DNA from: Acidobacteriota bacterium | GTDB taxonomy: Bacteria; Acidobacteriota; UBA6911 | Direction of reading: 5' to 3' | Length of the DNA: 64,000 nt | Assembly (NCBI GenBank): GCA_963664705.1 | Contig: OY761556.1 | Span: forward strand, 6,272,001 to 6,336,000 | Shown here: piece after piece, positions 41,548-60,600 of the stretch | Layout: every line of letters begins with the position of its first letter | How positions within the stretch are numbered: position 1 is the first letter of the stretch | Notes under the pieces: model-generated | What the model was told of the DNA's origin: nothing | Seen by the model: only the letters and a program-made list of their open reading frames with translations | Databases searched by the model: none | Made by a program: the position numbers and the translations under genes

Positions 41548-41668
41548 TGGACAGTCATTGTAAAGCCGGCCTGCAAAATGAGGTAGAAAAATGGATGTTC
41601 AGCCCAGAAGGAGATTGAGCACGGCGACATGATCGTCGTAGGATAAAGGCATTCAGAGCGAGACAACA

Positions 41669-43158: not shown

Positions 43159-43199
43159 GCATGCACGACGGCTCGTTACCGGGGGTATGGGAGGATTCA

Positions 43200-43613
43200 A
43201 TGCGGAAGCTCATTGTACTGTCGATTGTCGGCGTCCTTCTTTTAGCAGGCTGCAGTTTAGTTCAGACCGGGTCCAGTTCGGCGGACCAAGAGATCGCGGA
43301 TGCCTTTGCCAATCACCAGAGTGGCGTGCTGGTATCTGGCTCGGGTGTTGTCGATCGAGTCCTCTCGGATGACACGGAAGGTGCGCGTCACCAGCGTTTC
43401 ATCTTGCGTCTTGGGTCTGGCCAGACGCTGCTGATAGCTCACAACATTGATATTGCGCCCCGGGTCAGCGGGTTGTCCGTGGGCGATTTGGTCGAGTTCA
43501 GCGGGCAGTATGAGTGGAATGACAAGGGCGGCGTCGTCCACTGGACGCATCATGATCCCAGCGGCCATCATCAAGCAGGGTGGCTTAAACACGGGAGCGA
43601 AACTTACCAGTAG
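43200..43613 (+). CDS. DUF3465-like lipoprotein
   Basis: Lipobox LLLAGC; DD..G.RHQRFI, AHNID.APR, HWTHHDP. Confidence 0.8.
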   Translation: MRKLIVLSIVGVLLLAGCSLVQTGSSSADQEIADAFANHQSGVLVSGSGVVDRVLSDDTEGARHQRFILRLGSGQTLLIAHNIDIAPRVSGLSVGDLVEFSGQYEWNDKGGVVHWTHHDPSGHHQAGWLKHGSETYQ

Positions 43614-43786
43614 TCGCGGCCTGCAATTGCCTACACTCTTGAAGATGATTAGGCAAGATGAAATAACTCAGGACTTTGGGGGCAACGGCTCTATCTTCTT
43701 TCGAAAATTGGCCTTTGATCGCATTTTGCCACTCTTATCGATCAGGGATTTGTGGAAAGGCTTCGGAAATTGCGTAGTAGTGTCAC

Positions 43787-44119
43787 CTACGCGACCTCTT
43801 TCACTTTTGACGACTTGGACCTTCTCGTTTGGGGTTCAATGGACAGTTTTAATCCCATGGCCTGCAGCAACATCAAGATGCTCTTGATTTCCGGATTGCC
43901 ATTTTTGGAAAGCATTTTGTAAAGGCTTTCCCGGTTCAGCTTGGATTTCCGAGAAAGTGCGGTCATGCCCCCGCGAGCCTCCGCCACATTCCGCAAGGCC
44001 AGAAGGAACAGTTCACGATCGCCTTCTTCTATTGCAGCATTCAAATACGCAGCAGCTTCACGGGGATCCTTAAGAGCTTCAATAAGGTCCTCCTGATAGG
44101 TGGTGATCTTCTTACTCAT
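43787..44119 (-). CDS. Addiction-module antidote (HigA-like, TIGR02684-type HTH)
   Basis: AAAYLNAA, ALRNVAEARGGM, LNRESLYKMLS..GNP. Confidence 0.88.
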   Translation of the reverse strand: MSKKITTYQEDLIEALKDPREAAAYLNAAIEEGDRELFLLALRNVAEARGGMTALSRKSKLNRESLYKMLSKNGNPEIKSILMLLQAMGLKLSIEPQTRRSKSSKVKEVA

Positions 44120-44453
44120 CGCTGCTTCTCCTTTTATAGCCCTGCCAATAAACCTTCGCTTGTGCGATGTCCTTCTTTTGGGATGATTTATCTCCGCCCA
44201 GCAAAAGCAGAACAACTGTTTTCTGCTTCAAACCGTAATACACGCGATATCCTGGTCCATAATCGATCTTCAGTTCATAGACGCCCTCTCCCACAGAACG
44301 ATTTTTGCCGAGATTACCAAGGCGAACCCTGTCGAGCCTGATTCTAATCTTCTGCCGCGCCGTAATGTCCTTGAGGTCGTCCAACCACTCCTTGAACGGC
44401 TTCCCGTCCTTCTCCGTCAGATAATAGGATATCGTGTAGGGGTAATTATCTAC
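44112..44453 (-). CDS. RelE/HigB-like addiction-module toxin (start codon doubtful)
   Basis: PFKEWL, GNLG...VGEGVYELKIDYGPGYRVYY, LLLGGDKSSQKKDI; expected start position reads GTA. Confidence 0.8.
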   Translation of the reverse strand, partial: VDNYPYTISYYLTEKDGKPFKEWLDDLKDITARQKIRIRLDRVRLGNLGKNRSVGEGVYELKIDYGPGYRVYYGLKQKTVVLLLLGGDKSSQKKDIAQAKVYWQGYKRRSSDE

Positions 44454-44455
44454 GA

Positions 44456-44487
44456 GCCTATTTGTAGCATAAAAGCTACAAATAGGC
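44456..44487. promoter_or_regulatory. Toxin-antitoxin operator palindrome
   Basis: Perfect 13-bp IR GCCTATTTGTAGC-N6-GCTACAAATAGGC. Confidence 0.7.
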
Positions 44488-44670
44488 AGCAGTCTTTGGA
44501 ATGGCTGCAAGACTCAGAAATCCAAGGCGCACCTTCTGGCTGCACGCGGTGTTTTCGCTGGATAGCCAAACGAAGGGGTTCAACTGATAACAAATGTAAA
44601 AGTGTGGACAGATTGTCTCACTGGAGGGGTTCACCCCATACCTATGTGTCCGGGATGGACCAATGTGATT

Positions 44671-44716
44671 TGGTAGCGACGGGTGGAATCGAACCACCGA
44701 CCTTGGGGTTATGAAT
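44671..44716 (-). tRNA. 3' fragment of tRNA-Met(CAT); att site, not a complete gene
   Basis: ATTCATAACCCCAAGGTCGGTGGTTCGATTCCACCCGTCGCTACCA; anticodon loop, T-arm and CCA present, no 5' half. Confidence 0.8.
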
Positions 44717-45372
44717 TTGGGTTTAAAATGCCCCGTCCTTCTTTCTCAATGATTTACGGGCACTTACGTATACGGTTTTCCCCCCTGTTCTGGGATATTC
44801 TGTTCGCGATCTGTTCGCGGTCCCGTTCCCAAGATGCAAATGGATTTCAATGAAGATATTTTCTCGGTAATCGTGAATCAAGTCCTCGATACTTCTTAGC
44901 ATAAGTTTCAAGTGAATTAGCACTGAGAACTAAGGTCCACCAACTCAGATATATCTTAGGTAAATCGCTAAGAATGGATTTTTTGATAACAAAATTCCAT
45001 AGCAAAGCAATTATTCTTTACCAACTTTGGTCCGTTTGACTCTGGGCTACCTTGTTCATTATCCACGTTAAAAGGATATCGCTGCTACTCTAGGCCCAGG
45101 CTTGGTAGAATTCCCACCCTCGAGCACATGCGGGATTTATATTCCCTAGGATAGGATCTGAGTTGAAAACGAGCGTGCCCAATGGCTTAAAGGCCACCTC
45201 GCTCGGAGAATATACCTACGAAAACTTGTGATATAGTAAGCGCCCGTGACTGAACGCACACCCAAAACACTTGAGTTGACATACTACAAGCTGCAAAGGA
45301 GAATCCATTTTGAAAATTGGTTTTCTGTTTCTTCCAATCGGCTGAATATGCCAAATATCTAGAGGAGCATGG

Positions 45373-46524
45373 ATGATGAGAAGAATGTTATTGGCGGTGT
45401 TCTTCACGTTCCTTCTATTTGCTGGTCTGTTTGGCTGCCGCCGAATGCAAAAACAACCTAGCATTCAGATCGGAGCGATCCTCAGCCTCACAGGCCGTGG
45501 CAGCCAGTATGGAAAAGCCTCACTTCAGGGCATTCAAGTGGCGGTGGATGAGATGAATAAAGCCGGAGGCGTTCACGGTCACAAGATAGAACTTATTGTC
45601 GAGAATTCCCTGTCCGAAGCAAAGAACGCAGTCGCCTCCTACCAAAAACTCCTTGATGTGGACAAGGTCTGCGCAGTTATAGGTCCTATACTGAGTGACG
45701 AGGTCCTTGCGGTCGCCCCTGAAGCCAACCGGCGAAAAGTCCTGATTATCGCGCCGGCTGCGGGCACCGACAAGATCGCAACGGCAGGTCCATGGGTATT
45801 CAGAAATCGCGAGAGCGCCAATCTTCAGTCTGTAGAGATTGCGGACTTTCTTTTAAAAAAGCAACAACCGCTCCGCCTTGGCATTCTCTTTTCCATGACT
45901 GCTAACGCCATTTCCTATAAGGACGCTCTGTTGGAGGCCCTTGGTGCAAGGAAGAACATGGTGATGGTCCAGGAATCCTTTGCTGAGGGGCAGACCGACT
46001 TTAAGACTATTCTTGCAAAGCTTAAAAAAGCCAACCCAACTCATGTTTTTGTCGCAGGCCTTGCCCCGGAAATTGCGCGAGTGTTAGTACAAGCCGGGGA
46101 GACCCGCCTCGATACAAAATGGCTTTCTACTGCGGGCGCCCACGATCAGAAACTCCTAGAAATTGCAGGTGCATCAGCTGAAGGACTGGTCTTCGGCTTG
46201 CCCGTTCTTAATGCAGCAGATCCTGCTTCTCCTGCGGGGAAATTAGATTCTGAATTGAAGCGACGATTCAAGTCTAGCCTTGACATGTTTTCAGCCAACG
46301 CATATGACGCGGTCCACCTCCTTGCCCGGGCCGCCACATTGTCAGGATCCGAACCAGACCAGATTCGCAAGGGCCTACTACAGATCAAAAATTTCCCTGG
46401 TGCTGGAGGCAATACGACCTTCATCACTCCTGGAACAGTCATTAAACCAATTACATTAATGCAAGTTCGCAACGGGGTGTTCGCGCCCTACTTTGTCGAA
46501 ACAAAAATGCCTCGACTGAAATAA
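45373..46524 (+). CDS. LivJ/LivK-family ABC substrate-binding lipoprotein
   Basis: Lipobox GLFGC; IGAILSLTG, N.AGGV.G, AVIGP, WVFRN, AYDAV. Confidence 0.88.
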   Translation: MMRRMLLAVFFTFLLFAGLFGCRRMQKQPSIQIGAILSLTGRGSQYGKASLQGIQVAVDEMNKAGGVHGHKIELIVENSLSEAKNAVASYQKLLDVDKVCAVIGPILSDEVLAVAPEANRRKVLIIAPAAGTDKIATAGPWVFRNRESANLQSVEIADFLLKKQQPLRLGILFSMTANAISYKDALLEALGARKNMVMVQESFAEGQTDFKTILAKLKKANPTHVFVAGLAPEIARVLVQAGETRLDTKWLSTAGAHDQKLLEIAGASAEGLVFGLPVLNAADPASPAGKLDSELKRRFKSSLDMFSANAYDAVHLLARAATLSGSEPDQIRKGLLQIKNFPGAGGNTTFITPGTVIKPITLMQVRNGVFAPYFVETKMPRLK

Positions 46525-46535
46525 AGGTTCGCCTA

Positions 46536-48821
46536 ATGCCCAATAATCCACCAGAACTCGAAGCCTTTCGTCTCGCATGCTGGAACCAGGTCGAACGTTT
46601 TCCTCTCTTAGTGCCTCCGAATGAGCAAATCGAAGCAGTGTCAAAGGATCCCAGAACGCTCCGTGCTCAAGTGGCGCGATTACAGAGCTTCCTTCAAGAA
46701 TCAGCGAGCGAGCTGTTATACAAAACAACGTCATCCATTCAAGCCTTCATGCAACAGCGCATCCCTGGATTTGGCCTTAATGTTGGCTTAGTCTCTACAA
46801 TGCAGATGGCCGGCCCAGCCGTATCAGACCGAGGAATACCTGTATATCAATTCCTTATTGGTGCGGACGATATGTGGAACGCATACTTATCACACAAGTG
46901 TGATGGTGCTGTTCCGTTGGATAGGATTAAGGGCAAACTCGCCGACGGGGTTGCATTGCCCCAACGCCTATTTGGACACAGAAACGCGACAGGAGCGCTC
47001 TTGTCGCCAAACCCACCAGCGGAAATAGATCCCCAAAGACGTGTGGCTATTCCGTATGAACACTCAGCCGGAGGTATCGCCGGCACGGGAAATAAGTTCG
47101 TGTCCTCCTATCCTTGGGCACTTGTATCACCTCTTTCCTTTCCAATGCTATACGCATTAATCCCACGTAATAACACCCCGCTTGGGTTTCTGCAGATGCA
47201 CATCGAACTCCCCGGCATTCCTGATTCGGACAAGTACGCAGGTCACGAACAGGCATGGCTTCGCATCTACAATCCATCAGCCGCTTGGGCTATAGACATG
47301 GCTGCTTTCTTGGCCGCCTTCTGCAATATTCTCTTGGCGCCGGTGCTTGACAGAACAATTTTGCTTCGTGACCACGCAATGCACTCAATCGAAACACGAT
47401 TTTGTTTTCCAGATGACTTTCGAGAAGCCGTCCACCTTCGGGACGAAGATGTACCATGGAATCCCGATACGTACGGTGGTTCAAAATGGGTTCAACAGAT
47501 CGCCCATCTGCACAGTCTCTGGCGAGAACCGACCTTTCCGCCCGCCGAATTGGCCAAGAACCTGATTGACCTTTTCTGGTCGGAGGATACATGGCGTGGC
47601 CTTCCTCCCTTTGACAAACGCAGTGAAGCCGAAAAACTCCTCTTTTGGAGTGAGAAATACAGGGACCACCTCGTACACATTTTGAAAGTATTTCTCATTG
47701 GGGAGAGAATTATTCGAGAGATACACCATGGCAGCGTCTATGCGCGCTCTGTAATTGATAATACTCAACTCTGCGACGACGTGACAACACCGCTCGAAGC
47801 TTTTGAGTTTCAATGGATGCTTGCAGCGACAGTACACGACTATTCACTGCCGTATGAACTTCTTCCAGGTCTGCAAAAATCGTACTGGCGCGAATTCGTG
47901 ATTCCGGGAGACTCTAACGGGGACACTGAAGAGGATCCTGCAACACGCGATCTGGAGGCGATGCAGTTTGGTCTCACGCTTGCCGATAGAGTTCTCCGAC
48001 AGCATCTGGTTGTTAGCCTCTGGCAGTTGCTGCATTCAGAGGTAACGCCGCAAGGGCAGGAGTCATATCCTGCATATTGCCACCTTCATACATTGGGAAA
48101 GTCCGGAAAGAATATTGGCTATCCCAGGTTCTTGAGTTACTTTCTGGAGAATGGCGATCATGGCATTGCGAGTGCACTTTGGTTTTTACATCTCACAATG
48201 CTTGATAAAAAGGATGACGGCACGATTATCGGGCTTCATTCGCCAAACGGGCAAGAAACAGAAGCACGTTGCAGACAGTCAATCGCAGTTGCCAGGGCGT
48301 GCTATTTCCATAACCTTGCGACAAAGCGAGTTAAGAATGATGACAACGGGGCTGGCGAACCGATATTTGCGGGCAACCTCTTTGGCCCATTCGAAAAGGA
48401 TCCTTTGGCCTATCTTCTTCTTCTTTGCGATTTTCTCCAGGATGAAGGTCGAGACGAGAGTACCGCGCAACAATCGGATTCCACAAACGGATGGGGTAAG
48501 CGTCCATTTGGTCACGTAACGAAGGTCGAATGGTGCGACGGCTTTCTAGAAATTTATGTCGAATACGTATGGGTTCAGCGTGCGAAAAACGGGAAACCTC
48601 CTAAGAGGGTAATTTTCGGCGAGGACGGCTGCCAGAAGAAGGAAGGTGTGAAGTGCCATCGTCGTCAACAGACCGAATCGAAGAAACCAAATTGCTGGTT
48701 TCATGACTGCAAGGAGCGTGCCGAAATTGCCAAGGCTTTCGACCTTCTTGCTGCACGTCTTGCCGGCTTGCCTGTCAAAATTTACCTTGCCCATGAGAAG
48801 AAAGGGGCAATTGAACTGTGA
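46536..48821 (+). CDS. 761-aa uncharacterised protein with HD-superfamily-like domain
   Basis: YRDHLVH, WMLAATVHD, DHGIASA, FHN, LLLCDFLQDEGR; unassigned N-terminal ~350 aa; Cys/His-rich tail. Confidence 0.65.
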   Translation: MPNNPPELEAFRLACWNQVERFPLLVPPNEQIEAVSKDPRTLRAQVARLQSFLQESASELLYKTTSSIQAFMQQRIPGFGLNVGLVSTMQMAGPAVSDRGIPVYQFLIGADDMWNAYLSHKCDGAVPLDRIKGKLADGVALPQRLFGHRNATGALLSPNPPAEIDPQRRVAIPYEHSAGGIAGTGNKFVSSYPWALVSPLSFPMLYALIPRNNTPLGFLQMHIELPGIPDSDKYAGHEQAWLRIYNPSAAWAIDMAAFLAAFCNILLAPVLDRTILLRDHAMHSIETRFCFPDDFREAVHLRDEDVPWNPDTYGGSKWVQQIAHLHSLWREPTFPPAELAKNLIDLFWSEDTWRGLPPFDKRSEAEKLLFWSEKYRDHLVHILKVFLIGERIIREIHHGSVYARSVIDNTQLCDDVTTPLEAFEFQWMLAATVHDYSLPYELLPGLQKSYWREFVIPGDSNGDTEEDPATRDLEAMQFGLTLADRVLRQHLVVSLWQLLHSEVTPQGQESYPAYCHLHTLGKSGKNIGYPRFLSYFLENGDHGIASALWFLHLTMLDKKDDGTIIGLHSPNGQETEARCRQSIAVARACYFHNLATKRVKNDDNGAGEPIFAGNLFGPFEKDPLAYLLLLCDFLQDEGRDESTAQQSDSTNGWGKRPFGHVTKVEWCDGFLEIYVEYVWVQRAKNGKPPKRVIFGEDGCQKKEGVKCHRRQQTESKKPNCWFHDCKERAEIAKAFDLLAARLAGLPVKIYLAHEKKGAIEL

Positions 48822-50251
48822 GTAATGCTGAAATGAGAGGAATTGCGCTTGTTGAACCATCGAGTGGCCTCGGCGGCTGCTATACCTTCGCTGGCCACAA
48901 TGAATTTGAGCCACTGGGTCTTGAATATGTTGCGGCTTCTTTAAGAGCGGCAGGTCGCAAAGTATCAATACTCCGCCAAGGGACTGATAGTCCAGAGGAG
49001 ATCGCGTCGAAATTGCTAAACCTGAACCCTAGCGCGATTGGGCTATCAGTAATGACACACGCCGCAGAGTCGGCGTTTTCCATTGCTGCAATGATTAAGC
49101 AAAGCGACTCCACGATCCCTATAATTGCGGGTGGCTATCATCCTTCAGGAGACTCGGAATTTGCTCTGTTAACAGGTATTGACTACGTCGTTGCCGGCGA
49201 AGGAGAGCAGACTTTTAGGCACCTCCTCGATACTCTGGACGCATCAAGAGACCCAAGCTCCGTTCCTGGTCTGCGATTCTCGCGTGCCGGAGCAATTGTT
49301 GATACCGGATCCGCACCTCGCATCGCGGACCTTGATAAGATCCCCTTCCCCGTGCGATCAGAGGAGGTCCTCACAAATGCACGAATGCACGGCCTCATGT
49401 CTCCGCCTCCGAGTCAGCAACGAGCAGTCGCCGTCGTCTTGGGGAGTCGTGGATGCCCCCATGCCTGCACGTTCTGCTGTAGTCCCTCATTATGGGGAAG
49501 GCAAGTATACTTCCGCTCGGCACCGAATGTACTTGCAGAGATAGACGACCTTGTCCAACGGTTCCAAACAAATGCACTTTTCTTTTCTGACCTAACATTC
49601 AACGTAAACAATCGGCACCTTCAGAACCTCTGTAACCATCTGGCAGCCTATAAGGCTATGCCGCGTTGGTATTCAATGTGTACGACAACAGGCCTGGATA
49701 TTGAGACATTGCGGATTATGTGCGCCGGCGGTTGCAGCAAGATAGGATTCGGCGTTGAGTCGCTGTCGGAAGATTCTCTGCATAACATCGGTAAAGGCAA
49801 AATGTCTATCAACGGCGAACTGGAGGCAACATTAGCCGCTTGCGATTCGCTAGGCATTCTTACAAAAGGCTACCTGATAATCGGATATCCGTGGGAAACG
49901 GAGTCATCACTAGAACAATTCAAGAAATCTATTTTGTGCTTTCCCATGGATGAAATTCGTATTTCATTTTTTACCCCTTTCCCCGGAAGTATGGCTTTTG
50001 AGCAATATCGTAACAGCTTGATTACTAAGGATTGGTCGAAGTTCAATGCCATTCGGGACATTGTCGTACGTAACGAAAACAACGTGACCCCCGAAAGGTT
50101 GAAGGCGTTCAGACAAGAGGCGTTTCGTGCCTTCTATGGATCTTCTGCCTACCAGGTCCGTGTTCGAGCCAAGATCCAACGTCATCCCGAATTGGGCGCT
50201 TCCTTCGAGGAGTTCTTTGCCTTTCTGAAGGCAGGAGGGGTACTGTCCTAG
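48818..50251 (+). CDS. Cobalamin-binding radical SAM enzyme
   Basis: PLGLEYVAASL, IAGGYHPS, GEGE, SRGCPHACTFC, GFGVES, IIGYPWET, TPFPGS. Confidence 0.92.
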   Translation: MSNAEMRGIALVEPSSGLGGCYTFAGHNEFEPLGLEYVAASLRAAGRKVSILRQGTDSPEEIASKLLNLNPSAIGLSVMTHAAESAFSIAAMIKQSDSTIPIIAGGYHPSGDSEFALLTGIDYVVAGEGEQTFRHLLDTLDASRDPSSVPGLRFSRAGAIVDTGSAPRIADLDKIPFPVRSEEVLTNARMHGLMSPPPSQQRAVAVVLGSRGCPHACTFCCSPSLWGRQVYFRSAPNVLAEIDDLVQRFQTNALFFSDLTFNVNNRHLQNLCNHLAAYKAMPRWYSMCTTTGLDIETLRIMCAGGCSKIGFGVESLSEDSLHNIGKGKMSINGELEATLAACDSLGILTKGYLIIGYPWETESSLEQFKKSILCFPMDEIRISFFTPFPGSMAFEQYRNSLITKDWSKFNAIRDIVVRNENNVTPERLKAFRQEAFRAFYGSSAYQVRVRAKIQRHPELGASFEEFFAFLKAGGVLS

Positions 50252-50276
50252 TCTCCTAATCCTGTGTGGAGGCCAA

Positions 50277-51152
50277 GTGTTACAGGTTTTAGCTAACGGT
50301 TGTGCAGCTGGCGCCCGCATACTCCTTGTTGCGGTCGGTTTCTATTTGATCTTCCGCGTTGCCCGCTTTATTCACCTTGCGCATGCTTTCTTCATCACGG
50401 CCGGCGCATACCTTGCTTATACACTTCATAGGCAGGCCGGTTTGTCCTTTCTGCCTGCAATTTTCTTGGCAGTTGTTGCCTGCGGCGTCCTAGGCGGGGT
50501 CGTCGAGGCTATCATCTACAGACCTTCAAGAAAAACGGCCTCATCGCTGGTCTTGTTATTATTATCTTTGGGCCTGTACATTGCTGGTCAAAACATTGTA
50601 TCGCTTCTCTTTGGGGATGCGCCACTTGTTATCAGGCAATGGGAACCACCCACAACGTACACAATGGGCTCTGTCACGGTCACACTAAGCCAGGTCAGCA
50701 CCATCCTGGTCGCAATTGTCCTTGCATTTTGTCTAGGGGTGTTTATTCAGAAAACACGTACTGGCCGCACGCTTAAGGCGGTTGGCTCTAACATGTCATT
50801 GGCGCAGGTTTCAGGAATCCGTGTGGAGGCCACGGTCCTACTTGCTTTTGTTATCGGTTCTGCTTTTGCTGCAACCGCTGGTATTCTCGCATGCCTTGAA
50901 GTAGATGCTACACCGTCAATGGGGCTGAGCATGTTGATGCTCAGTCTGGTTGCGGTGATTGCCGGTTGGCCGCGAGGTCTCCTTGGTATTTCGGCAGTCT
51001 CGCTGATTTTGGGTGTTCTACAACACATTGTCGCGTATTACTGCGGCTCACAGTGGCAAGATACTATTGCTTTTGCGTTTCTAACAGTGGTGTTTCTTCT
51101 TCGGGGAAGGCGTGAAAGCGCGATCTTCGGGGTTGCAGCGGCAAGCAGGTGA
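50277..51152 (+). CDS. livH: Branched-chain-amino-acid-type ABC permease (LivH-like)
   Basis: AVGFYLIF, HLAH, TRTGRTLKAV..N..LAQVSGI. Confidence 0.8.
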   Translation: MLQVLANGCAAGARILLVAVGFYLIFRVARFIHLAHAFFITAGAYLAYTLHRQAGLSFLPAIFLAVVACGVLGGVVEAIIYRPSRKTASSLVLLLLSLGLYIAGQNIVSLLFGDAPLVIRQWEPPTTYTMGSVTVTLSQVSTILVAIVLAFCLGVFIQKTRTGRTLKAVGSNMSLAQVSGIRVEATVLLAFVIGSAFAATAGILACLEVDATPSMGLSMLMLSLVAVIAGWPRGLLGISAVSLILGVLQHIVAYYCGSQWQDTIAFAFLTVVFLLRGRRESAIFGVAAASR

Positions 51153-51159
51153 AATTCAA

Positions 51160-52047
51160 ATGGATTACATCCTTCATATCGTAGTGTTCATTTTTCTGTA
51201 TTGGGCACTTGCTACGTCTCTCAATCTGGTTGTTGGCTATACTGGTATTCTTTCCATTGGTCACGCTGCATTCTATGGTGTCGGTGCCTATACTGCTGCG
51301 CTTATGTCTCTGCACCTCAAGACTTCGTTTCTGATCAACTTGCTTTGTGCGGCATTGGTGTGTTCCATACTCGGAGTCTTTATTGGCAGGCCTACTCTCA
51401 GATTAAGCAACAATAATTTCGTTGTCGCTTCATTCGCTTTTCAAATCATTACGTTTAACATTCTTAATAACTGGATGCCCGTAACCGGGGGGGCCATTGG
51501 CCTCCCCGGAATTCCTCTTCCATCAATACTTGAACTGACGATTACCTCCCGGTTGGGCTTTGCAGCGCTGTCCGGTATCTTTGCCTTTATTGTATGGTGC
51601 TTTGTGGTATTCCTGGTTCGGTCGCCCATAGGTCGAATCCTACAGGCAACACGCGAAGACGAAGTGTTTGCGGCAGCAATGGGCAAGAATGTTGCCCGGT
51701 ATAAACTACTTGCCTTCGTGATTGGTGCAGTGATTGCCGGCTGTGCTGGCGTTATCTATGCTTATTTTATCAGATACATCGATCCGAGCAGTTTTACACT
51801 GATGGAATCCATCTTCATCCTATCGATGGTGGTCTTAGGCGGAGCCGGCAGCATTTGTGGGCCCATTATAGGAGCAACCATTTTTGTAATAATGCCGGAG
51901 ATCTTGCGGTTTGTGGGGCTGCCCAACGCTGTGGCAGCCAATCTGCGGCAGACACTCTATGGCATCATTCTAGTGACATTTATACTCATCCGTCCACATG
52001 GAATCATGGGGCGATATGGATTTGGAAAGGAGCGCCTGGGTCGATGA
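51160..52047 (+). CDS. livM: ABC permease (LivM-like)
   Basis: LNLVVGYTGILSIGHAAFYGVGAY, SPIGR...ATREDE, VLGG.GS. Confidence 0.85.
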   Translation: MDYILHIVVFIFLYWALATSLNLVVGYTGILSIGHAAFYGVGAYTAALMSLHLKTSFLINLLCAALVCSILGVFIGRPTLRLSNNNFVVASFAFQIITFNILNNWMPVTGGAIGLPGIPLPSILELTITSRLGFAALSGIFAFIVWCFVVFLVRSPIGRILQATREDEVFAAAMGKNVARYKLLAFVIGAVIAGCAGVIYAYFIRYIDPSSFTLMESIFILSMVVLGGAGSICGPIIGATIFVIMPEILRFVGLPNAVAANLRQTLYGIILVTFILIRPHGIMGRYGFGKERLGR

Positions 52048-52799
52048 CGCCTCTCGTTGAGATTACGGCTCTCACCATGCACTTCGATGGTGTCACTGCC
52101 TTGGATGATTTTTCGTGTACTATAGAACAAAGGGAGATCCTCGGCTTGATGGGCCCCAATGGGGCCGGAAAAACTACTCTCCTCAACGTTCTCACTGGCC
52201 TACATACTCCCGACAGAGGAAACGTAACCTTCAAAGGCAAAAATGTCATCGGTCGCCAAGTTCACGAGATCGCACGCCTCGGAGTTGCGCGAACTTTCCA
52301 GAACCTACGCCTCATTCGCCATCTCACGGTTCTGCAGAATGTACTTCTTTGCTTTCAGAATCAACCAGGCGAGCATCTATACGACCTCTTCTTGAAACAC
52401 GGCACCTGTCTTTTACATGAACGGAGAAACCAAGAAAGTGCCAGAACCATTCTGTCGAGAGTCGGACTAGTGCAATCTCAAAATACTCTGGCAGACGACC
52501 TTTCTTATGGCCAACAGAAACTCCTGAGCTTGGCTTGCTGCATCGCCACGGACGCCGAACTTCTGCTGTTGGATGAACCGGTTGCAGGCATCGCCCCAGG
52601 ATTTATAGAAACCATTCTGACCGTCATCCAAGAGTTGTCTAAAGAAGGCAGGTCGGTGCTCGTCGTAGAGCATAACGTTGAGGCTCTGAATCGAATTTGC
52701 CGCCGAGTTATCTTTATGGATGCGGGACGCCAACTCTGCGAAGGAACTCCAACCGAGGTTTTTAACGATCAAAGGATCGTCGAGTCCTATCTCGACTGA
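52044..52799 (+). CDS. livG: ABC ATPase (LivG-like)
   Basis: GPNGAGKTT, ARTFQ, LSYGQQK, LLLLDEP. Confidence 0.88.
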   Translation: MTPLVEITALTMHFDGVTALDDFSCTIEQREILGLMGPNGAGKTTLLNVLTGLHTPDRGNVTFKGKNVIGRQVHEIARLGVARTFQNLRLIRHLTVLQNVLLCFQNQPGEHLYDLFLKHGTCLLHERRNQESARTILSRVGLVQSQNTLADDLSYGQQKLLSLACCIATDAELLLLDEPVAGIAPGFIETILTVIQELSKEGRSVLVVEHNVEALNRICRRVIFMDAGRQLCEGTPTEVFNDQRIVESYLD

Positions 52800-52807
52800 C
52801 AACAATT

Positions 52808-53509
52808 ATGCTCGCAATTAGACAGATGGACTCGGGATACGGCAAAAGGCAGGTGCTTTATGGCCTCTCGCTCAGGATCCAACCGGGCGAGATCGTCGCG
52901 CTAATTGGCCCCAATGGAGCCGGCAAATCAACTGTCCTTAAAGTCATTCACGGCCTGTTACCAGTTTGGGCCGGCGAAGTTTTGTTTGAAGGGATTGGCC
53001 TGGACCGCACCGGCCCCGCTATTCGAGTGGCAAAAGGCATTACTTTTGTGCCACAAGGAAACCGTGTTTTTGGGGATCTCTCCGTCAGGGAGAATTTGGA
53101 GATGGGTGGGGCTCAACTTCCAAAGGAGCTGATCCAAGATCGTATGGAAGAAGCCTTGCAGTTCTTCCCAGCTTTGTGCGATCGCCAACAAACTATTGCC
53201 GGATCCCTTTCAGGCGGAGAACAACAGATGCTTGCTCTCGGTCGTGCCCTTATGACTCGGCCCAAACTCCTGTTGCTGGACGAACCATCCTTAGGTCTAT
53301 CCCCAAATATCAGTTCCCAGGTTTTCGAAAAAATAGCGGACATCAACCGAGAGACAGGCTCCGCTATTTTGATTGTCGAACAGAAAGTTCGTGAAGTTCT
53401 CCTCATTGCGGAACGTATCTACTCTCTAAAGCTCGGGAAGGTCTTCTATGATGGAGGTGCGCAGCCATTGCGGGATGATAATGAACTCCTAAAACGCCTC
53501 TTTCTCTGA
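52808..53509 (+). CDS. livF: ABC ATPase (LivF-like)
   Basis: GPNGAGKST, LSGGEQQML, LLDEPSLGL. Confidence 0.9.
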   Translation: MLAIRQMDSGYGKRQVLYGLSLRIQPGEIVALIGPNGAGKSTVLKVIHGLLPVWAGEVLFEGIGLDRTGPAIRVAKGITFVPQGNRVFGDLSVRENLEMGGAQLPKELIQDRMEEALQFFPALCDRQQTIAGSLSGGEQQMLALGRALMTRPKLLLLDEPSLGLSPNISSQVFEKIADINRETGSAILIVEQKVREVLLIAERIYSLKLGKVFYDGGAQPLRDDNELLKRLFL

Positions 53510-53758
53510 GGGGAGGTAATGCCTGCAGATATGCCTGATGCCGCGTATTGATCCATTCCGGCATGCTTCATAGACATTGTGTCTCCGAACCACCAGCTTT
53601 GATAGGCGGTACTTGAGCCAAGTCCGTTGTCTGTAATTCAACAATCTGACATTTTGTAAAATATCAGCACTAACTCCTTTGTTTACTTGACAGACATCTA
53701 TCATTATTTTACGATATAGCAACTCTGATATCAAAACGTCAAATCAGAAAGGCCCAAA

Positions 53759-54346
53759 ATGAGCAAATTGTTCATGTCAGAACAAGACATCAAAACTCTC
53801 ATGACTCTGGCCAAAAAAGATCCGCGAGATTATGCGCTCTTAAAACTGATGGCCTCCACCGGGCTCCGCGTCAGCGACATTGTGCGCCTTCGTCGAGATC
53901 AGATGATTGACAGCGACGGCCTGGTTGTAAGAGCAGTTCGAATCAAAATGGAAAAAACTGATCGCTGGATCGATCGCTCTCTTCGAGAGGATGCCCGAGA
54001 GGCTGTCCGAGAATATCTTGCTGCCAGGCATGATTTGCATCCCTGGCTATTTATCAGTCAATCCCGCAGAACAAAATTCGTTGTACCGGGTCCCCTAACC
54101 CGATCGGCAACGCACCAGATCGTAAAAAAATATTTGGCAATGATCTATCCGGCCAGCTTAATCCAGGGGACCGCAACGCATGTGCTTCGCCGGTCAGTCG
54201 CCAAGCTGATCAATCGGAAGACCGGCAGGATCGAAACTGCACAGGAGTGGCTAGGGCACACCAGCACGGCGCATACGCGGGCTTATATTGATGCGGAAGA
54301 TTACCGAGAGAAGGCAAACGGCGTGGTTGCAGGGTTGGACATTTAG
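53759..54346 (+). CDS. Minimal tyrosine recombinase (catalytic domain only)
   Basis: TGLRVSD, HVLRRS, LGH, AY catalytic set in 195 aa. Confidence 0.88.
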   Translation: MSKLFMSEQDIKTLMTLAKKDPRDYALLKLMASTGLRVSDIVRLRRDQMIDSDGLVVRAVRIKMEKTDRWIDRSLREDAREAVREYLAARHDLHPWLFISQSRRTKFVVPGPLTRSATHQIVKKYLAMIYPASLIQGTATHVLRRSVAKLINRKTGRIETAQEWLGHTSTAHTRAYIDAEDYREKANGVVAGLDI

Positions 54347-54483
54347 CCTGAATGCTGACTCAGGTCACGTCGTGACAAATAATTCATCCTGTTTGTAACC
54401 ATGCGGCACTTGGGATCTAAAATCCCATCTCGTCCCTCGTTATAACGCCAGTTCTCCAAAGAGTGCCCCAGACCGGAGAATGG

Positions 54484-55209
54484 CTACGGCTGAATAGGGG
54501 CTTTCGTCTTCAGCTGAACTACCATGGTATTCCAGAATTCGCGTGCAACGCGAAAATATTCCCTCAAATCCTGCGGAGTGACGAAGAAATCCTGGCCTGC
54601 GAGCGGCAGACGCGTGGGCAGCTTTTCGGAAAACATTTTGATTTCTTCGCCGCGAATACAGGGGGCGACGAACATGTCGGGGCGTACCAAATAAAGTTTT
54701 GAACTTGCTGCGCCGTCGTCAGCATGTTTCACGGTGTCCGCGACGAGCCGCAGCTCATCTATTTTGGGGAATATCGAAAACTGGCGGCATTCGATTCCCA
54801 ATAGCTCTTTTATCCTCGCGAACGCCTGCTTTATGGTTAAGGGCCGGTTACTGGAGTCTGTCGGCTTGATCAGTTCGTTCGAGCAGAAAGCGATTAGTTG
54901 CTGCTCGAGAAGATGGAAAAGAGTTACAACCATTGAATTCAGGACGATCTGCTGAACCGAGGTCATTGCCTCGAAATAGGCGATGCCTGCATCTTGCGCC
55001 TGCTCGGCCAGATCATCTATGTCAATTTCATCAGTTCCAGGGAGATTGCCAAGGCGATCGTACTCGGATTGGCATGCCGTCTCCGCTTCCTTCCCAATCT
55101 GCTCGAAGGACGGGAGCAATTTCTTAAATATGCCACTCTCGAGTATGTCGAGCTGCCAAAGAAACACCTTGCCAATGTACGAGGCATAGAACTGCGCATT
55201 ATGGATCAT
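54484..55209 (-). CDS. Hypothetical protein, possibly HEPN-like
   Basis: Helical; LFHLLEQQL and ELRLVADTVKH motifs. Confidence 0.55.
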   Translation of the reverse strand: MIHNAQFYASYIGKVFLWQLDILESGIFKKLLPSFEQIGKEAETACQSEYDRLGNLPGTDEIDIDDLAEQAQDAGIAYFEAMTSVQQIVLNSMVVTLFHLLEQQLIAFCSNELIKPTDSSNRPLTIKQAFARIKELLGIECRQFSIFPKIDELRLVADTVKHADDGAASSKLYLVRPDMFVAPCIRGEEIKMFSEKLPTRLPLAGQDFFVTPQDLREYFRVAREFWNTMVVQLKTKAPIQP

Positions 55210-55731
55210 TTTTAGAGTGCAAACCTTTTTGAATTTCTATCCTATATCTGCAAAGCCATTTAAGGCAATGCCCATTACACTATCGTTCGCGGACTGGAGT
55301 GCTGAAGACGCGAATTTCCCTTTCGTGTATAGAGCGGTCTTGATATACAAGAACCTATTTGGGTTTCGTTGGAAACTATTCCAGGCGGCCAACCACAATA
55401 GTTGTCCGGCATACTAATCAATGTCAGCTCCGATGCTGGATTCACTCAACCCATAATCCAATCGTATAATTTTGACCCAAGAACATTCGGGTCCGAATTC
55501 CAGGAGGGGGGGTAGGGTCCGGGGTTGGCCCTCTCGCATTGTATAGGGGGTCCCAATCGCTGGTTCCACCTGGGATAAAAATCTACTCATCCCACCTTTT
55601 GTTGCAAAATGTAACTAAAGATGACTTTCCAAATGAAACGGGTTTTGGCTGCCGCGCTGAGGCTCCACTAAGAGATAAAAGTTTTACAATTCGCCGGCTA
55701 ATTTGCCGGCGAAAGTGTATAGTATCCCACT

Positions 55732-56538
55732 ATGGTGGGTATGCTACATATGCTGGATCTTCCGATAAACGAAAGTGATAAAAAGCGGCTAAGCGAAGAT
55801 GGGTTTCGATGGGGTGCGATTGGCACGCACACCAGCCGGACCATCATGCTCGACGAGCTTGGAGCGGTACTTGCCAAGTGTTCACCCACGGCAATGCGCG
55901 ACGAGTATCTCTTGGCAATACATGAAGACAACTGCCTGGGAAAGCGTACCACAGCAACGCGGAAGCTTTCCAGCCAGCGACTTTCGGAGTTGTACTCACT
56001 CGACTCAAAGGTACCTCTGTTCCGCATCATGCGAAGGTTCTGGTATGCAGACCGCGATGGACAAGCAATTCTTGCGATATTGCTGGCCCTTGCGCGCGAT
56101 CCGTTATTAAGAATCAGCGCCCCTCCCGTGCTCCGGATGCGCCCTGGTGAAGAGCTTTCAAGACAGCAGATTACCGATGCGCTCAGCCGTGCGGTTGGCA
56201 GCCGCCTCAGCGATAGTACGCTCGATAAGGTTGTTAGGAACGCGGCCTCTTCCTGGACACAATCGGGACATCTGAAAGGCAGGGGAAGAAAAATCAGGCA
56301 GAGTGTCACTCCAACGGCCGTAACGACAGCTTACGCCCTCCTGCTGGGCTACCTCATGGGCATGCGCGGCATGGTTCTCTTCGAGTCATTATGGGCTCAG
56401 GTGCTCGACGCCCCTGTGCCCGAACTTATAAATCTCGCAATGGATGCCCGACGGCTAGGATTCCTGGACATGAGCCAATCGGGAGGCGTGATTTCTGTTG
56501 ATTTCTCGCGGCTCCTGGCGCAAGACGAAAGGCGGTAG
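55732..56538 (+). CDS. brxA: BREX BrxA-like protein
   Basis: First gene of the operon before brxB/brxC; GTHTSRTIML, NCLGK.T, SSWTQSGHL; assignment mainly positional. Confidence 0.65.
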   Translation: MVGMLHMLDLPINESDKKRLSEDGFRWGAIGTHTSRTIMLDELGAVLAKCSPTAMRDEYLLAIHEDNCLGKRTTATRKLSSQRLSELYSLDSKVPLFRIMRRFWYADRDGQAILAILLALARDPLLRISAPPVLRMRPGEELSRQQITDALSRAVGSRLSDSTLDKVVRNAASSWTQSGHLKGRGRKIRQSVTPTAVTTAYALLLGYLMGMRGMVLFESLWAQVLDAPVPELINLAMDARRLGFLDMSQSGGVISVDFSRLLAQDERR

Positions 56539-56542
56539 ATCA

Positions 56543-57103
56543 ATGGGAAGGATCGAAGAACTGGCCACTCGATACCGCGGACACATCGCCGCACCATGGC
56601 AACGTAACCTCGCTGGAGATCAGAAGGCAATTTTTGTAGTGTATCCGAAAGCAGATGAGCGAAAGCTGCGAGCGCGGATGGAGCTTTTCGAAATGGCCAC
56701 TACATCAGCCGGGCACCGCTGGCGGCCACTTGATCTGACCGGCACCTTTGCGCGATGGATGGCTGAAACCACATACCGCGATATCTACTTCGAGGAACCG
56801 GAAACGCTGTCGATGAAGCTGCGCAGTGACTTTGTGCAGTACGCGGCTGGTAGGCTTCGCGAGGCGTTAACGGCTGAGGGGGTAGATGATGATACCGTAG
56901 TGGCAGTACAGGGCGTCGCAGGCCTCTTCGGCTTCACCCGTGTTTCGCTGGTGCTCAAGGAAGTGGTGAAGGACATTCGTGGCCGGCTGGTAGTGTTTTT
57001 CCCCGGCGAGTATGAGGACAACATCTATCGACTGTTGGATGCACGTGACGGCTGGAACTATCTGGCTGTGCCGATCACGCTCCATAACGGGGTGCACGAC
57101 TGA
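56543..57103 (+). CDS. brxB: BREX BrxB (DUF1788)
   Basis: FVVYP..E, LVVFFPGEY, YRLLD, NYLA. Confidence 0.85.
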   Translation: MGRIEELATRYRGHIAAPWQRNLAGDQKAIFVVYPKADERKLRARMELFEMATTSAGHRWRPLDLTGTFARWMAETTYRDIYFEEPETLSMKLRSDFVQYAAGRLREALTAEGVDDDTVVAVQGVAGLFGFTRVSLVLKEVVKDIRGRLVVFFPGEYEDNIYRLLDARDGWNYLAVPITLHNGVHD

Positions 57104-60100
57104 TGAAAAACAAACAACTATTCCAACGAGATCCCGCTGTATCCAAGCTGTTGAATGACGGAGTTGCTGCTGTACGCGAAGCAGCGAGTGCCAAGGAAAT
57201 CGAGACGCTCCGGTATGAGCTTGAGCACTTTGTGTGCGAAGGCCAGTACGAGGATGGCTTGGTTCGCATACTGGAATCCTATCTCGGGAATGTTAGCTCG
57301 ACGACACAGCCGGCAGCATGGGTAAGCGGTTTTTACGGCAGTGGAAAATCTCATTTGCTCAAGATGTTTCGCCATTTATGGGTAGATTCTCGTTTCGACG
57401 ACGGTTCGACAGCCCGTGGTTTAGCGCGGCTCCCTCAGGAAGTTCAGGATCTGCTGCGCGAACTTGACACGCTAGGCAAGCGCAGCGGCGGCTTGCACGC
57501 AGCGTCGGGGACACTTCCCTCAGGCGGAGGCGAGAGCGTTCGACTAGCCGTGTTGAGTATCGTTTTTTCTTCCAAAAACCTGCCGGAAGCACTGCCGCAG
57601 GCACAGTTCTGTATGTGGCTCCAGAAGAATAACTTCCTCGACAGTGTGAAGTCGGCAGTAAAAGCTGCAGGCAAGGAATTTTATAGTGAACTGCACGACC
57701 TTTACGTCAGTCCGATTCTTGCCCAAGCCGTTCTCGATGCCGATCCCAGCTTCGCTGCCGACCTTAAAACGGCTCGCGCTGCGCTGCGAACTCAATTCCC
57801 AGTGGTCGAAGATATTTCAACAACTGAGTTTATCCGGATGGCCCGCGAGGTGCTCTCGGTTGATGGCCAAATTCCCTGCAGTGTTATTGTGCTGGATGAA
57901 ATCCAGCTTTTCATTGCCGGCGATCCGGTGCGGTCCACGGACGTACAGGAAGTAGCAGAGGCACTGTGCAAGCAACTTGATAGTCGGGTACTCCTGATCG
58001 GAGCCGGGCAACAGGCGCTGGCGGCGCAGGACCAGTTGCTTCAACGTCTCACTGGCCGATTCACTATACCGGTGGAATTGTCTGATTCCGATGTAGAAAC
58101 AGTTACTCGACGCGTGGTGCTTTCGAAAAAGGCAGACAAAAAGAAGGCTATTGAGGATACGATGAATGCCCATGCTGGTGAAATTAACCGCCAGCTTGTC
58201 GGTACACGCATCGCCGCATGTGCGGAAGACCGCGATATAGTTGTGGATGATTACCCATTATTGCCAGTTCGCAGGCGATTCTGGGAGCATGTACTACGCG
58301 CAGTGGATGTACCCGGTACGGCAAGTCAGCTTCGTACACAACTGAAGATTGTCCATGAGGCAGTGCGGCAGACGGCTGAGGCAGACTTAGGCACCGTAGT
58401 TGCTGCTGATTTCATCTTTGAGCAGATCAGCCCGGACTTACGAAAGACCGGAATCCTGCTCCGTGAAATAGATGAAACGATTCGCAATCTCGATGATGGC
58501 ACGCCCGATGGCCGACTTGCCCAAAGGCTGTGCGGCCTGATTTTCCTGATTCGTAAGCTGCCGCTGGAAGCTGTTGCCGACATTGGCGTCCGTGCGACTC
58601 CAGAGATGCTGGCTGACCTGATGGTAGCTGATTTGGCTAATGATGGGACGGAACTTCGAAAACACATCCCGCGCATCCTCAAGCTTCTTGCAGATCCGCC
58701 GGCCGAATCGGAACGGCCATCTTGGCTACGTAAGGCCATGCAGGACAAAGGTGCGCTGCTGATCGAGATCGAGGGCGAATACAGCCTTCAAACTCGTGAG
58801 AGCAGCGAGTGGGACCGCGAATTCCGCAATCGCCAGACGCGACTGAACAGCGACCTTACTTTTATTACAAGCAAGCGTGGCTCACTCATTAGCGCATGCT
58901 GTGGCGAGTTGCTCAAGAGCATCAAGCTCGCGCAGGGCAAGTGCAAGGAGCCGCGGAAGCTGCTGATACATTTTGGCAGTGAAGCTCCATCGGCTGGTGG
59001 AACAGACATTCCGGTGTGGATCCGCGACGGATGGGGCGAGAAGGCAAGCACTGTTGTGAACGATGCTCGTGCCGCCGGAAGTGATAGCCCTATCATCTAC
59101 ATCTATATTGAAAAGGCGAGTGCCGATGACCTTCAGAAGACGATCGCAGAATATGAAGCCGCGAAATCCACACTAGACTTCAAAGGTACTCCCACCACTC
59201 CCGAAGGGCGCGAGGCTCGTGATGCCATGGCTACACGGATGGCATCAGCCGAAGCGTCTCGTAACCAGATCGTTAAGGATGTTATAGACCGAGCCAAAGT
59301 CTTTCAGGGCGGCGGTGGTGAGCGTTTCGAGTTGAGTCTCACTGCTAAGGTGGAATCGGCTGCGCTGGCATCGCTCGATCGATTATTTCCCAACTTCAAG
59401 AGTGCGGACGACAGCCGCTGGACTAATGTTATCAACCGCGCCAAGAATGGTGATGAAGCAGCTCTATCTGCTGTGGACTGGACTGACGCTCCGGATAAGC
59501 ACCCCGTTTGTGCGGCCGTGCTTTCGGAGATCGGTTCGGGTAAACGTGGCAAAGATATCCGCGACGCTTTCGAAATCAGCCCATACGGTTGGCCCCGTGA
59601 TGCCGTGGATGGCGCACTAATAATGCTGCACACAACCGGGCACATCCGCGCTGTCCATAAGGGGATGACCCTTTCACAGGGGCAGCTCGACCAGGCGAAG
59701 ATTTCCGTTACTGACTTTCGCGCGGAGACAGCCACAATTAATGCCAAGGATAGAATTAAGCTCCGCAAATTATTCCAAACGGCAGGAGTGGACTGCAAAC
59801 CTAACGAGGAAACCGCTAAGGCACCCGTCTTTCTGGCGCGTCTTATTGAACTGGCAGACTCCATTGGCGGTGAGCCGCCAATGCCAGTGCGCCCTGGGAC
59901 TGGGTATCTCGATATGCTCCGCGGTTTTGGTGGTGTTGAGCAATTGGTTGAAATCCTTAAAGCCCACGACATGCTTGCCGAGCAAACGAAGAACTGGGGT
60001 AAGCTCTCCGAACTCGCTGGCAAGCGCAAGCCCGCCTGGGTCATGCTCAATACCCTGCTCAAACACGCCGACGCCATGCCCGGAGCTGATGAACTCCGCA

Positions 60101-60600
60101 AGCAGGCCGATGCCGTGAAGTCGGAGCGCCGATTGCTAGATACCAGTGACCCTGTGCCCGATATCCGCAAAGCCGCAACAGATGCACTTCGCACGGCCGT
60201 AACCGCCGCGCACGGTGAATACGAGAGGTCTTATAACGAACAGATGGTCAGCTTCACAACCAGCGACAACTGGAAGAAGCTCACAGATGTACAGCGAAAG
60301 CAAATTCTCTCGGATGAAGATATAGAAGAGCTACCCGTATTGTCCGTCGGAAGCGAAGCAGATCTTATCCGTGCATTGGATGGAATTGCCCTGCCTAATT
60401 GGAAGACCAAGATTGATGCGCTGCCTCAGCAGTTTGCTCGCGCAGCAATGGCTGCTGCCAGGCTTTTAGAGCCGAAGACGCAGAATGTTCATCTCAAGAG
60501 CGGAACTCTTAAGACCGAAGCAGAGGTCAAAACGTGGCTCATGGAAACTGAGAAAGCATTGATAGAGCGGTTGCAGAGAGGCCCTCTAGTCATTAACTAA
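57103..60600 (+). CDS. brxC: BREX P-loop ATPase BrxC
   Basis: WVSGFYGSGKSH Walker A, VLDEIQ Walker B, GRF...LSD.DVE.V, PYGWP. Confidence 0.92.
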   Translation: MKNKQLFQRDPAVSKLLNDGVAAVREAASAKEIETLRYELEHFVCEGQYEDGLVRILESYLGNVSSTTQPAAWVSGFYGSGKSHLLKMFRHLWVDSRFDDGSTARGLARLPQEVQDLLRELDTLGKRSGGLHAASGTLPSGGGESVRLAVLSIVFSSKNLPEALPQAQFCMWLQKNNFLDSVKSAVKAAGKEFYSELHDLYVSPILAQAVLDADPSFAADLKTARAALRTQFPVVEDISTTEFIRMAREVLSVDGQIPCSVIVLDEIQLFIAGDPVRSTDVQEVAEALCKQLDSRVLLIGAGQQALAAQDQLLQRLTGRFTIPVELSDSDVETVTRRVVLSKKADKKKAIEDTMNAHAGEINRQLVGTRIAACAEDRDIVVDDYPLLPVRRRFWEHVLRAVDVPGTASQLRTQLKIVHEAVRQTAEADLGTVVAADFIFEQISPDLRKTGILLREIDETIRNLDDGTPDGRLAQRLCGLIFLIRKLPLEAVADIGVRATPEMLADLMVADLANDGTELRKHIPRILKLLADPPAESERPSWLRKAMQDKGALLIEIEGEYSLQTRESSEWDREFRNRQTRLNSDLTFITSKRGSLISACCGELLKSIKLAQGKCKEPRKLLIHFGSEAPSAGGTDIPVWIRDGWGEKASTVVNDARAAGSDSPIIYIYIEKASADDLQKTIAEYEAAKSTLDFKGTPTTPEGREARDAMATRMASAEASRNQIVKDVIDRAKVFQGGGGERFELSLTAKVESAALASLDRLFPNFKSADDSRWTNVINRAKNGDEAALSAVDWTDAPDKHPVCAAVLSEIGSGKRGKDIRDAFEISPYGWPRDAVDGALIMLHTTGHIRAVHKGMTLSQGQLDQAKISVTDFRAETATINAKDRIKLRKLFQTAGVDCKPNEETAKAPVFLARLIELADSIGGEPPMPVRPGTGYLDMLRGFGGVEQLVEILKAHDMLAEQTKNWGKLSELAGKRKPAWVMLNTLLKHADAMPGADELRKQADAVKSERRLLDTSDPVPDIRKAATDALRTAVTAAHGEYERSYNEQMVSFTTSDNWKKLTDVQRKQILSDEDIEELPVLSVGSEADLIRALDGIALPNWKTKIDALPQQFARAAMAAARLLEPKTQNVHLKSGTLKTEAEVKTWLMETEKALIERLQRGPLVIN

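Follow-up and report, generated by a model that had tools for sequence, protein, structure and literature searches.

The operon and its products

We describe a seven-gene operon in a 64,000-nucleotide (nt) stretch of DNA from an Acidobacteriota bacterium (contig OY761556.1, positions 6,272,001 to 6,336,000 of the forward strand), hereafter the window; positions follow its numbering, G000 is the genome that carries it, and other L and G labels denote the other loci and genomes compared. The seven genes, co-oriented on the + strand (45373..53509), encode in order a HAAT/Liv-type solute-binding protein (SBP) of 383 aa (45373..46524; PF13458, Peripla_BP_6, E 3e-51, with a lipobox-like LFGC in its N-terminal signal), a 761-aa protein with predicted GAF (about residues 1-290) and HD domains and a C-terminal four-Cys cluster (46536..48821; structure model and motif counts), a B12-binding radical S-adenosylmethionine (SAM) enzyme of 477 aa (48818..50251; PF02310 E 2e-23, PF04055 E 8e-16), LivH- and LivM-type permeases (50277..51152 and 51163..52047; PF02653, BPD_transp_2, E 3e-29 and 4e-43, the ATG start of livM being set by alignment in a frame that opens at 51112), and LivG- and LivF-type ATP-binding cassette (ABC) ATPases (52044..52799 and 52808..53509; Pfam ABC_tran). 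Taking ATG starts at 51163 for livM and 52044 for livG, the successive intergenic distances are 11, -4, 25, 10, -4 and 8 nt (maximum 25, two overlaps). The original prediction had described seven tightly coupled genes in this order; open reading frames (ORFs), gaps and overlaps all lie where it placed them, and Pfam agrees for every gene except that of the 761-aa protein, which has no hit. By hydropathy, neither the radical SAM enzyme nor the GAF-HD protein has an N-terminal signal peptide. A ribosomally synthesized and post-translationally modified peptide precursor was considered and rejected: the operon gaps (at most 25 nt) are too small, and no + strand ORF of at least 80 aa lies between the attachment (att) repeat described below and the first gene.

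The five transporter parts (the binding protein, two BPD_transp_2 permeases and two ABC ATPases by Pfam) are the same-domain components of the HAAT importers LivJ/K-LivHMGF and UrtABCDE, and their ATPase motifs are intact (Walker A, signature and Walker B in both, with the H-loop in LivG). Unlike those importers, they score below the NCBIfam Liv and Urt cut-offs (bits against Liv cut-off: LivJ/K 133/477, LivH 74/379, LivM 156/366, LivG 207/362, LivF 194/441), have replaced pocket residues in the binding protein, enclose two enzymes, and are patchily distributed and island-borne. Docking has assigned the ligand of LivJ to S79, T102, Y150 and Y202 (accessible part of PMC6983066). In a pairwise alignment of low identity with LivJ (1z15), the window binding protein keeps S79 and replaces the other three (T102 by G, Y150 by N, Y202 by L). 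E226, which we take to be a further LivJ ligand residue, aligns to A. The pocket segments are near-identical in the four closest loci. No second Liv system was found in G000, and within the genus the HD gene and LivM occur in the same two of 30 genomes; together with the altered pocket, these observations bear out the earlier contention that this is not a usual housekeeping liv operon. Binding-protein-dependent systems import, so the lipoprotein binding protein indicates that transport would be inward: where the original prediction had the operon importing or exporting a small molecule, we keep import and drop the export of a product.

The 761-aa protein has no match in Pfam, NCBIfam, PADLOC or PDB sequences, and scoring of 7,999 candidates yielded just six close relatives. 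A profile search with its HD family reached 328 clusters at E ≤ 0.001 and 14 at 1e-30; the core domain is unnamed at Pfam cut-offs in all 83 relatives scanned (7 + 76), with GAF domains matched in seven of the 76 wider relatives and a nucleotidyltransferase in one. Calling the protein HD-like, as had been done, holds for its HD part and is an incomplete description, as GAF and HD folds and a two-metal site are predicted from an AlphaFold model (24 sequences, pLDDT 80, pTM 0.80) and the conserved residues. In a wide fold search with this predicted model, residues 5-284 matched GAF (3k2n; Z 12.4, root-mean-square deviation (rmsd) 3.2, 167 aligned) and residues of about 350-751 the HD region of PPX/GppA (Z 9.2-9.4, rmsd 3.8, 163 aligned), while the C-terminal half scored Z 8.2-8.7 against class I phosphodiesterases (PDEs), YhaM and an HD-GYP protein. 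The top Foldseek rows were the GAF-containing PDE6 and PDE2A (E 0.02-0.07) and lone GAF domains. The window protein itself is without a Pfam GAF match; its distant relatives do match GAF.

A putative extended two-metal motif, H..HD..H..H..D, is present in the HD part. Across the alignment R376, H378, H381, H434, D435, H542, H592, D632 and R639 are each kept in 139 or 140 of 140 rows (metal motif: H381 139/139, H434 140/140, D435 140/140, H542 139/140, H592 139/139, D632 139/139), these rows having been picked by a profile that itself holds the motifs. In the accessible part of PMC8177086, this pattern is that of two-metal HD sites and multinuclear phosphodiesterases have an HH pair. No H..HH..D pair occurs here, the residues beside H592 being mostly L/I/F and N/D, and the polynuclear HD phosphodiesterase motif is accordingly absent. 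In the near family the C-terminal cysteines C699, C707, C720 and C725 are kept in 20/21, 21/21, 19/19 and 13/19 sequences, and the four may form a zinc site. The GAF-regulated class I enzymes PDE2/5/6 share the GAF plus HD layout, and PPX/GppA matches in the fold of its HD region, but identity is about 10-14%, there is no PDEase_I Pfam match and no HH pair stands at the fourth ligand position, so that a substrate cannot be read from either likeness. In the Atlas, the HD part lies closest to unnamed clusters (0.94-0.95) and then to HD-CE, the nearest named cluster (0.91), and the whole protein reaches only 0.81, to GAF-PDEs. HD-CE is an HD effector of conflict loci; the window HD domain differs in its fusion to a predicted GAF domain and in having a radical SAM enzyme and an importer as partners, and PF24391 (HD-CE) has no Pfam match in the window protein or the 83 relatives scanned. 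In PADLOC 2.0, the binding protein, the radical SAM enzyme and seven HD proteins were unmatched at E ≤ 0.01.

The radical SAM enzyme has the features of the cobalamin-dependent class, namely a B12-binding domain and, after it, a radical SAM domain containing CxxxCxxC (C213-x3-C217-x2-C220), and falls in no named NCBIfam subfamily (BchE, HpnJ, PhpK, TsrM, TokK and others; best score 135 against 481 bits, among the best 25 of 29 matches). Plasmids gave no HD match and only generic radical SAM matches below 30% (best 15 of 148 records); viral contigs gave no HD relative, and the 80 loci kept for the radical SAM alignment had best segments of 23-30%. Over 400 random genomes the radical SAM profile found a single new match, in a gene cluster rich in radical SAM genes and devoid of Liv, which indicates that the wider radical SAM family is not tied to Liv.

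The original prediction had likened the two enzymes to OxsB and OxsA, a B12 radical SAM/HD precedent for oxetanocin (accessible parts of PMC9204698 and PMC8177086). The likeness consists of a B12 radical SAM gene beside an HD gene, and the analogy is otherwise weak and unsupported. OxsB is not among the seven PDB sequences that match the radical SAM enzyme at E ≤ 0.01, and neither OxsA nor YfbR is among the matches listed in either fold search with the whole 761-aa model as query, although the protein may still have such a fold. Against the four-ligand H..HD..D set of OxsA (H31, H66, D67 and D132 in the accessible part of PMC8177086), the window protein adds the conserved H542 and H592 and a predicted GAF domain, and an importer is attached.

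Recurrence, divergence and exchange of cargo

The operon is rare and mobile. A Liv-type importer, a B12 radical SAM enzyme and a member of this HD subfamily occur together as a trio in 10 loci, the window included (L003/L005 and L008/L017 being taken once each), in at least three phyla and in three gene orders; the named records include Acidobacteriota, Planctomycetota and Desulfobacterota. The order SBP-HD-radical SAM-livH occurs in the window, L004 (its SBP end read by eye), L006, L007 and G024, with L003 cut before the HD gene; SBP-radical SAM-HD occurs in L009, L011 and L162, and HD-radical SAM-SBP-livH in L010. In each of the 10 loci the radical SAM gene and the HD gene are direct neighbours. 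The neighbourhood search for co-occurrence with Liv genes that had been proposed for this operon thus recovers the same partners repeatedly, which argues for one conserved unit rather than a chance insertion. One of the trios, L162, was recovered by a LivM search that took no account of HD. Two copies show damage or insertion: an IS256 transposase sits in the place of livG in L006, and the SBP of L007 has a one-base frameshift.

When searched by the HD alignment, radical SAM and Liv genes were adjacent in three of three metagenome loci (two near-identical) and in six of 10 genome loci. The remaining four genome loci have a distant HD gene (21-22%) and no Liv; three of these follow a histidine kinase and one is near DISARM-like helicases. 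In one of the three, L014 (5885-13613), a B12 radical SAM gene, a histidine kinase, a distant HD gene, an energy-coupling factor (ECF) ATPase and CbiQ stand together, so that radical SAM and HD are paired with another importer type. G000 itself carries a second, distant member of the HD family (L106 9329-16071; 5731329-5738071); it is divergent from genes for a GAF histidine kinase and a receiver-metallo-beta-lactamase. Ranking the same 400 genomes by the binding protein gave mostly plain Liv operons, with the HD gene in none of the 40 matches read out of 53. An extra gene lies between livH and livM in L009 (12146-12538), L155 and L160; the L009 copy is a four-helix protein of the 23S rRNA intervening-sequence type, and the L155 and L160 copies begin with near-identical sequence.

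A quick tree of the HD core (52 rows, leaving out L014, P0041 and P0078, in which the cutting motif is missing) placed all nine Liv-linked rows on one side of a branch and the four other-context rows on the other (SH-aLRT 98). By FastTree, the partner radical SAM enzymes fall into separate lineages, namely a window type, an L009/L011/L162 type and L014 beside the ECF genes, on long branches. Since the Liv-linked HD proteins group together while their radical SAM partners come from at least two distant lineages, the pairing looks selected rather than frozen. Among loci of the same order, identity to the window is 30-48% for the GAF region, 45-57% for the HD core, 67-73% for the radical SAM enzyme, 74-78% for the SBP and 75-80% for LivH. 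A conserved pump and radical enzyme beside a fast-changing GAF-HD protein suggest a constant ligand and an effector under diversifying pressure.

In the LivM tree, nine of 10 cargo-bearing operons form a group together with a single short-contig row (93/86, not starred), and most plain operons lie outside it. A profile of this cargo-group LivM matched four of 300, seven of 300 and 10 of 208 further genomes. We read 22 of the resulting regions: 11 have enzymes or regulators in or beside the operon, seven are fragmentary and four look ordinary. In L115 (5932-13308; G130:C42), whose LivM is sister to that of L009, an SBP, a RelA/SpoT-domain protein and a thioesterase precede livHMGF. L114/L171 (G454:C35) carries a KAP nucleoside triphosphatase, a helix-turn-helix protein, a B12 radical SAM enzyme, an 803-aa P-loop protein, an RdrB-like adenosine deaminase and a membrane protein with SBP-livHMGF, and is a RADAR-like cassette on the same transporter group. 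Other cargo comprises a SPASM radical SAM enzyme with a methyltransferase (L149), a 903-aa methyltransferase fusion with an N-terminus that is calcineurin-like by eye (L157), a calcineurin-like phosphoesterase (L151), YcaO (L152), a polyprenyl synthase (L153) and a pyridoxal phosphate (PLP) decarboxylase (L150). In L165, livH is preceded by genes for a sigma54-type ATPase and a receiver; in L151, by those for an ATPase and a receiver. Because related transporters carry RelA/SpoT, RdrB-like deaminase and other enzymes, the cargo slot is swappable. In two genomes (L105 4045-9664 and L149 1-4335), a module of DNA methylase, HSP90-like ATPase-kinase and receiver-like genes is co-oriented with the Liv cassette and abuts it.

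The island and its BREX system

The operon lies at the edge of a mobile element. A 48-bp att repeat on the - strand (44669..44716), the 3' part of tRNA-Met with exact copies elsewhere in G000, marks the outer end of a 46-kb island. It matches exactly the intact tRNA-Met gene at G000 c[6522611-6522687] (copy at 6522609-6522656), and further copies lie at 6362632 (exact) and 6401470 (92%); ARAGORN found no whole tRNA in the 64-kb window. The repeats at G000 6316669, 6362632, 6401470 and 6522609 delimit three tandem islands, which together span about 206 kb. With its start 657 nt inward of the att repeat, the operon is the outermost cargo of the outermost island, with the island integrase at the opposite end (G000 6361372-6362550). 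brxA begins 2,223 nt past livF, outside the operon; brxA, brxB and brxC occupy 55732..60600 on the + strand (PADLOC BrxA E 2.5e-103, BrxB 2.3e-80, BrxC E 0), and the BREX system runs on beyond the window end. Both the position as first cargo within a tRNA att site and the distance of about 2 kb from BREX had been called correctly.

The same island contains BREX with HEC-01 and AIPR insertions, McrBC-like genes and a short Argonaute system. In the BREX locus a TIR/SpbK-like gene stands between brxC and pglX (60611-61657), and an AIPR gene with HEC-01AB between pglX and pglZ (L001 4140-7712); the short prokaryotic Argonaute is accompanied by a partner of the REase-TIR-APAZ type (L001 17296-18819, L002 3785-5617; G000 6350296-6353617). 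Between livF and brxA lies a tyrosine recombinase of 195 aa that consists of the catalytic domain only (53759-54346). To the left of the att repeat, 39883-44510 holds mobile-type genes (a methyltransferase-HNH fusion, a VRR-NUC nuclease and a Gp49/HI1420 toxin-antitoxin pair), and 42256-42452 is an 85% copy of 208 nt at the integrase end (G000 6362410-6362617) with no tRNA repeat after it, possibly a remnant of an older related element. Two nhaA-I RNA motifs occur at 19370-19423 and 22065-22118. A 45,975-bp short-read contig starts inside the att repeat and is identical to 44687-58000, from a run that may be the window's own source, and fragments at 99% identity or more are present in a second sequencing study. 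No excised-circle joint was seen among the reads over 16 kb tested, and contigs cannot exclude one.

Proposed function and alternatives

The folds of the parts are known, the HD family has no name, and the gene layout is undescribed as far as the literature was searched, most subscription papers and the HD-CE supplements lying outside that search. A term search of the main text of a BREX survey (PMC12839542; supplements outside the search) found no mention of such a module, and the layout is not described in the accessible part of PMC4158269. The new gene system is robust and testable; its function we infer. GAF domains are small-molecule binders that gate the enzymes to which they are attached. 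Our tentative reading, to which we give somewhat less than an even chance, is that of a mobile, conserved three-part conflict module. In it, the ABC pump would take up a small molecule that is not simply a branched-chain amino acid, and the B12 radical SAM enzyme would convert this compound. The resulting product would bind to the GAF domain and switch the HD phosphohydrolase (both domains being predicted), whose role as effector in phage defence or a comparable conflict would be to destroy nucleotides. This chain of import, radical conversion, GAF binding and nucleotide hydrolysis would be the simplest one, since it uses all three fixed parts. The ligand may either arm the effector or hold it off, the latter as p3diT does in Clover, where the CloA HD dGTPase is held off by CloB-made p3diT (accessible part of PMC12265719). 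That parallel is one of logic only, an HD effector gated by a partner-made small molecule; Clover has another HD family, a nucleotidyltransferase partner and no transporter.

The neighbourhood of the trio loci bears on the conflict role. PADLOC matches at E ≤ 1e-60, a cut picked after the matches had been seen, lie within about 5 kb of seven of nine trio loci and of none of 20 plain Liv loci, a lenient housekeeping control (one-sided Fisher p 2e-5); at E ≤ 1e-12 the figures are eight of nine and five of 20 (p 0.002). The trio loci counted are those with flanks (L004, with no flank, is left out, and the methylase of L010 ends 5.05 kb away), and the 20 control loci, represented by 126 ORFs, were chosen from 62 regions, the test ORFs being hand-picked. 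At the strict cut the defence genes are, by locus, BREX; IetS; a DruE-like helicase with PDC-M41B; Hma with a type II methylase; and two type II and one type I restriction-modification systems. Enrichment near defence loci, for which the original prediction had proposed a test, is observed against this control, and the count shows island residence, not defence function.

Several points weigh against the conflict module. Beyond the choice of cut and control, any rare mobile operon tends toward defence-rich islands, and of the trio loci L162 adjoins kinases and a phosphatase while L003 has only weak nuclease matches. The whole model returned nothing at E ≤ 0.001 in Foldseek, and the HD fold scores (Z 8-9) are middling for a helical domain and fix no subfamily; HD proteins also include oxygenases and lyases (accessible part of PMC8177086). 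The fast divergence of the GAF-HD protein can mean low constraint, and the distant HD relatives in L012, L014 and L015 follow histidine kinases and receivers, so that the family may be a plain signalling output. Many sister operons carry metabolic- or biosynthetic-looking cargo (short-chain dehydrogenase/reductase, PLP decarboxylase, polyprenyl synthase, YcaO, methyltransferases).

That last kind of cargo favours a scavenging or catabolic operon that rides islands and has no conflict role: the pump would take up an uncommon nutrient or a precursor of a cofactor, the radical SAM enzyme would process it, and the GAF-HD protein would regulate or complete the pathway. Importers with embedded enzymes are normally catabolic, and the intact transport motifs and a binding site invariant in the four closest loci fit such a role as well. 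We nevertheless consider it rather unlikely, as the 10 loci contain no transcription regulator or downstream catabolic genes, sister operons carry RelA/SpoT and RdrB-like cargo, defence neighbours occur at seven of nine loci, and divergence is much faster in the HD protein than in its partners.

Detoxification or immunity, in which a nucleoside-like antibiotic or toxin that the module takes up or meets would be inactivated by radical modification and dephosphorylation, draws on the patchy, mobile spread and island location of the operon and on the ability of HD phosphatases such as OxsA to dephosphorylate nucleoside analogues (accessible part of PMC8177086). It seems improbable to us: toxin import is an odd route to resistance, the predicted GAF sensor suggests a gated enzyme and not a constitutive detoxifier, and no resistance-type neighbours were seen at the loci examined.

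We think it about equally improbable that the operon serves private island signalling, the radical SAM enzyme making a signal from a host metabolite that neighbours re-import and that leads the GAF-HD protein to alter a second-messenger level. Rap-Phr with Opp follows a parallel logic. The layout of synthase, importer and sensor-output accords with this, as do the distant HD relatives that are outputs of kinase-receiver relays or tandem-GAF proteins and the regulator genes of L165 (sigma54-type ATPase and receiver, before livH) and L151 (ATPase and receiver); yet there is no exporter, and the binding protein and radical enzyme, which would be expected to diversify, are the conserved parts.

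Finally, synthesis by the radical SAM and HD enzymes of an oxetanocin-like antiviral nucleoside moved by the ABC system, for which the adjacency of the two genes in all 10 loci and the OxsB/OxsA precedent speak (PMC9204698, PMC8177086, accessible parts), is very improbable given the absence of OxsB among the PDB matches, the two further conserved His, the predicted GAF domain and length of 761 aa set against the four OxsA ligands, and the inward direction of binding-protein-dependent systems.

The conflict module may also belong to a class of importer-gated immune modules, an extension that we regard as unlikely: a dedicated clade of Liv-type pumps would import an outside cue, for example from infected or stressed neighbours, a B12 radical SAM enzyme would make a new second messenger from it, and a swappable nucleotide-targeting effector (GAF-HD, RelA/SpoT or RdrB-like deaminase) would respond. 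Whichever role proves right, the locus contains three elements that point to one small molecule: a B12 radical SAM enzyme of an uncharacterised subfamily, an HD protein whose family has no name, and a binding protein whose pocket is altered. If the reading as a class is true, bacterial immunity would here be switched by a small molecule taken up from outside, and both the radical chemistry and the HD enzyme family would be new. The defence systems known to us sense infection inside the cell; a dedicated importer as a fixed part of a defence system would, if our reading of the conflict module is true, mean that the trigger or brake originates in the surroundings, a point relevant to the question of bacteria warning one another.

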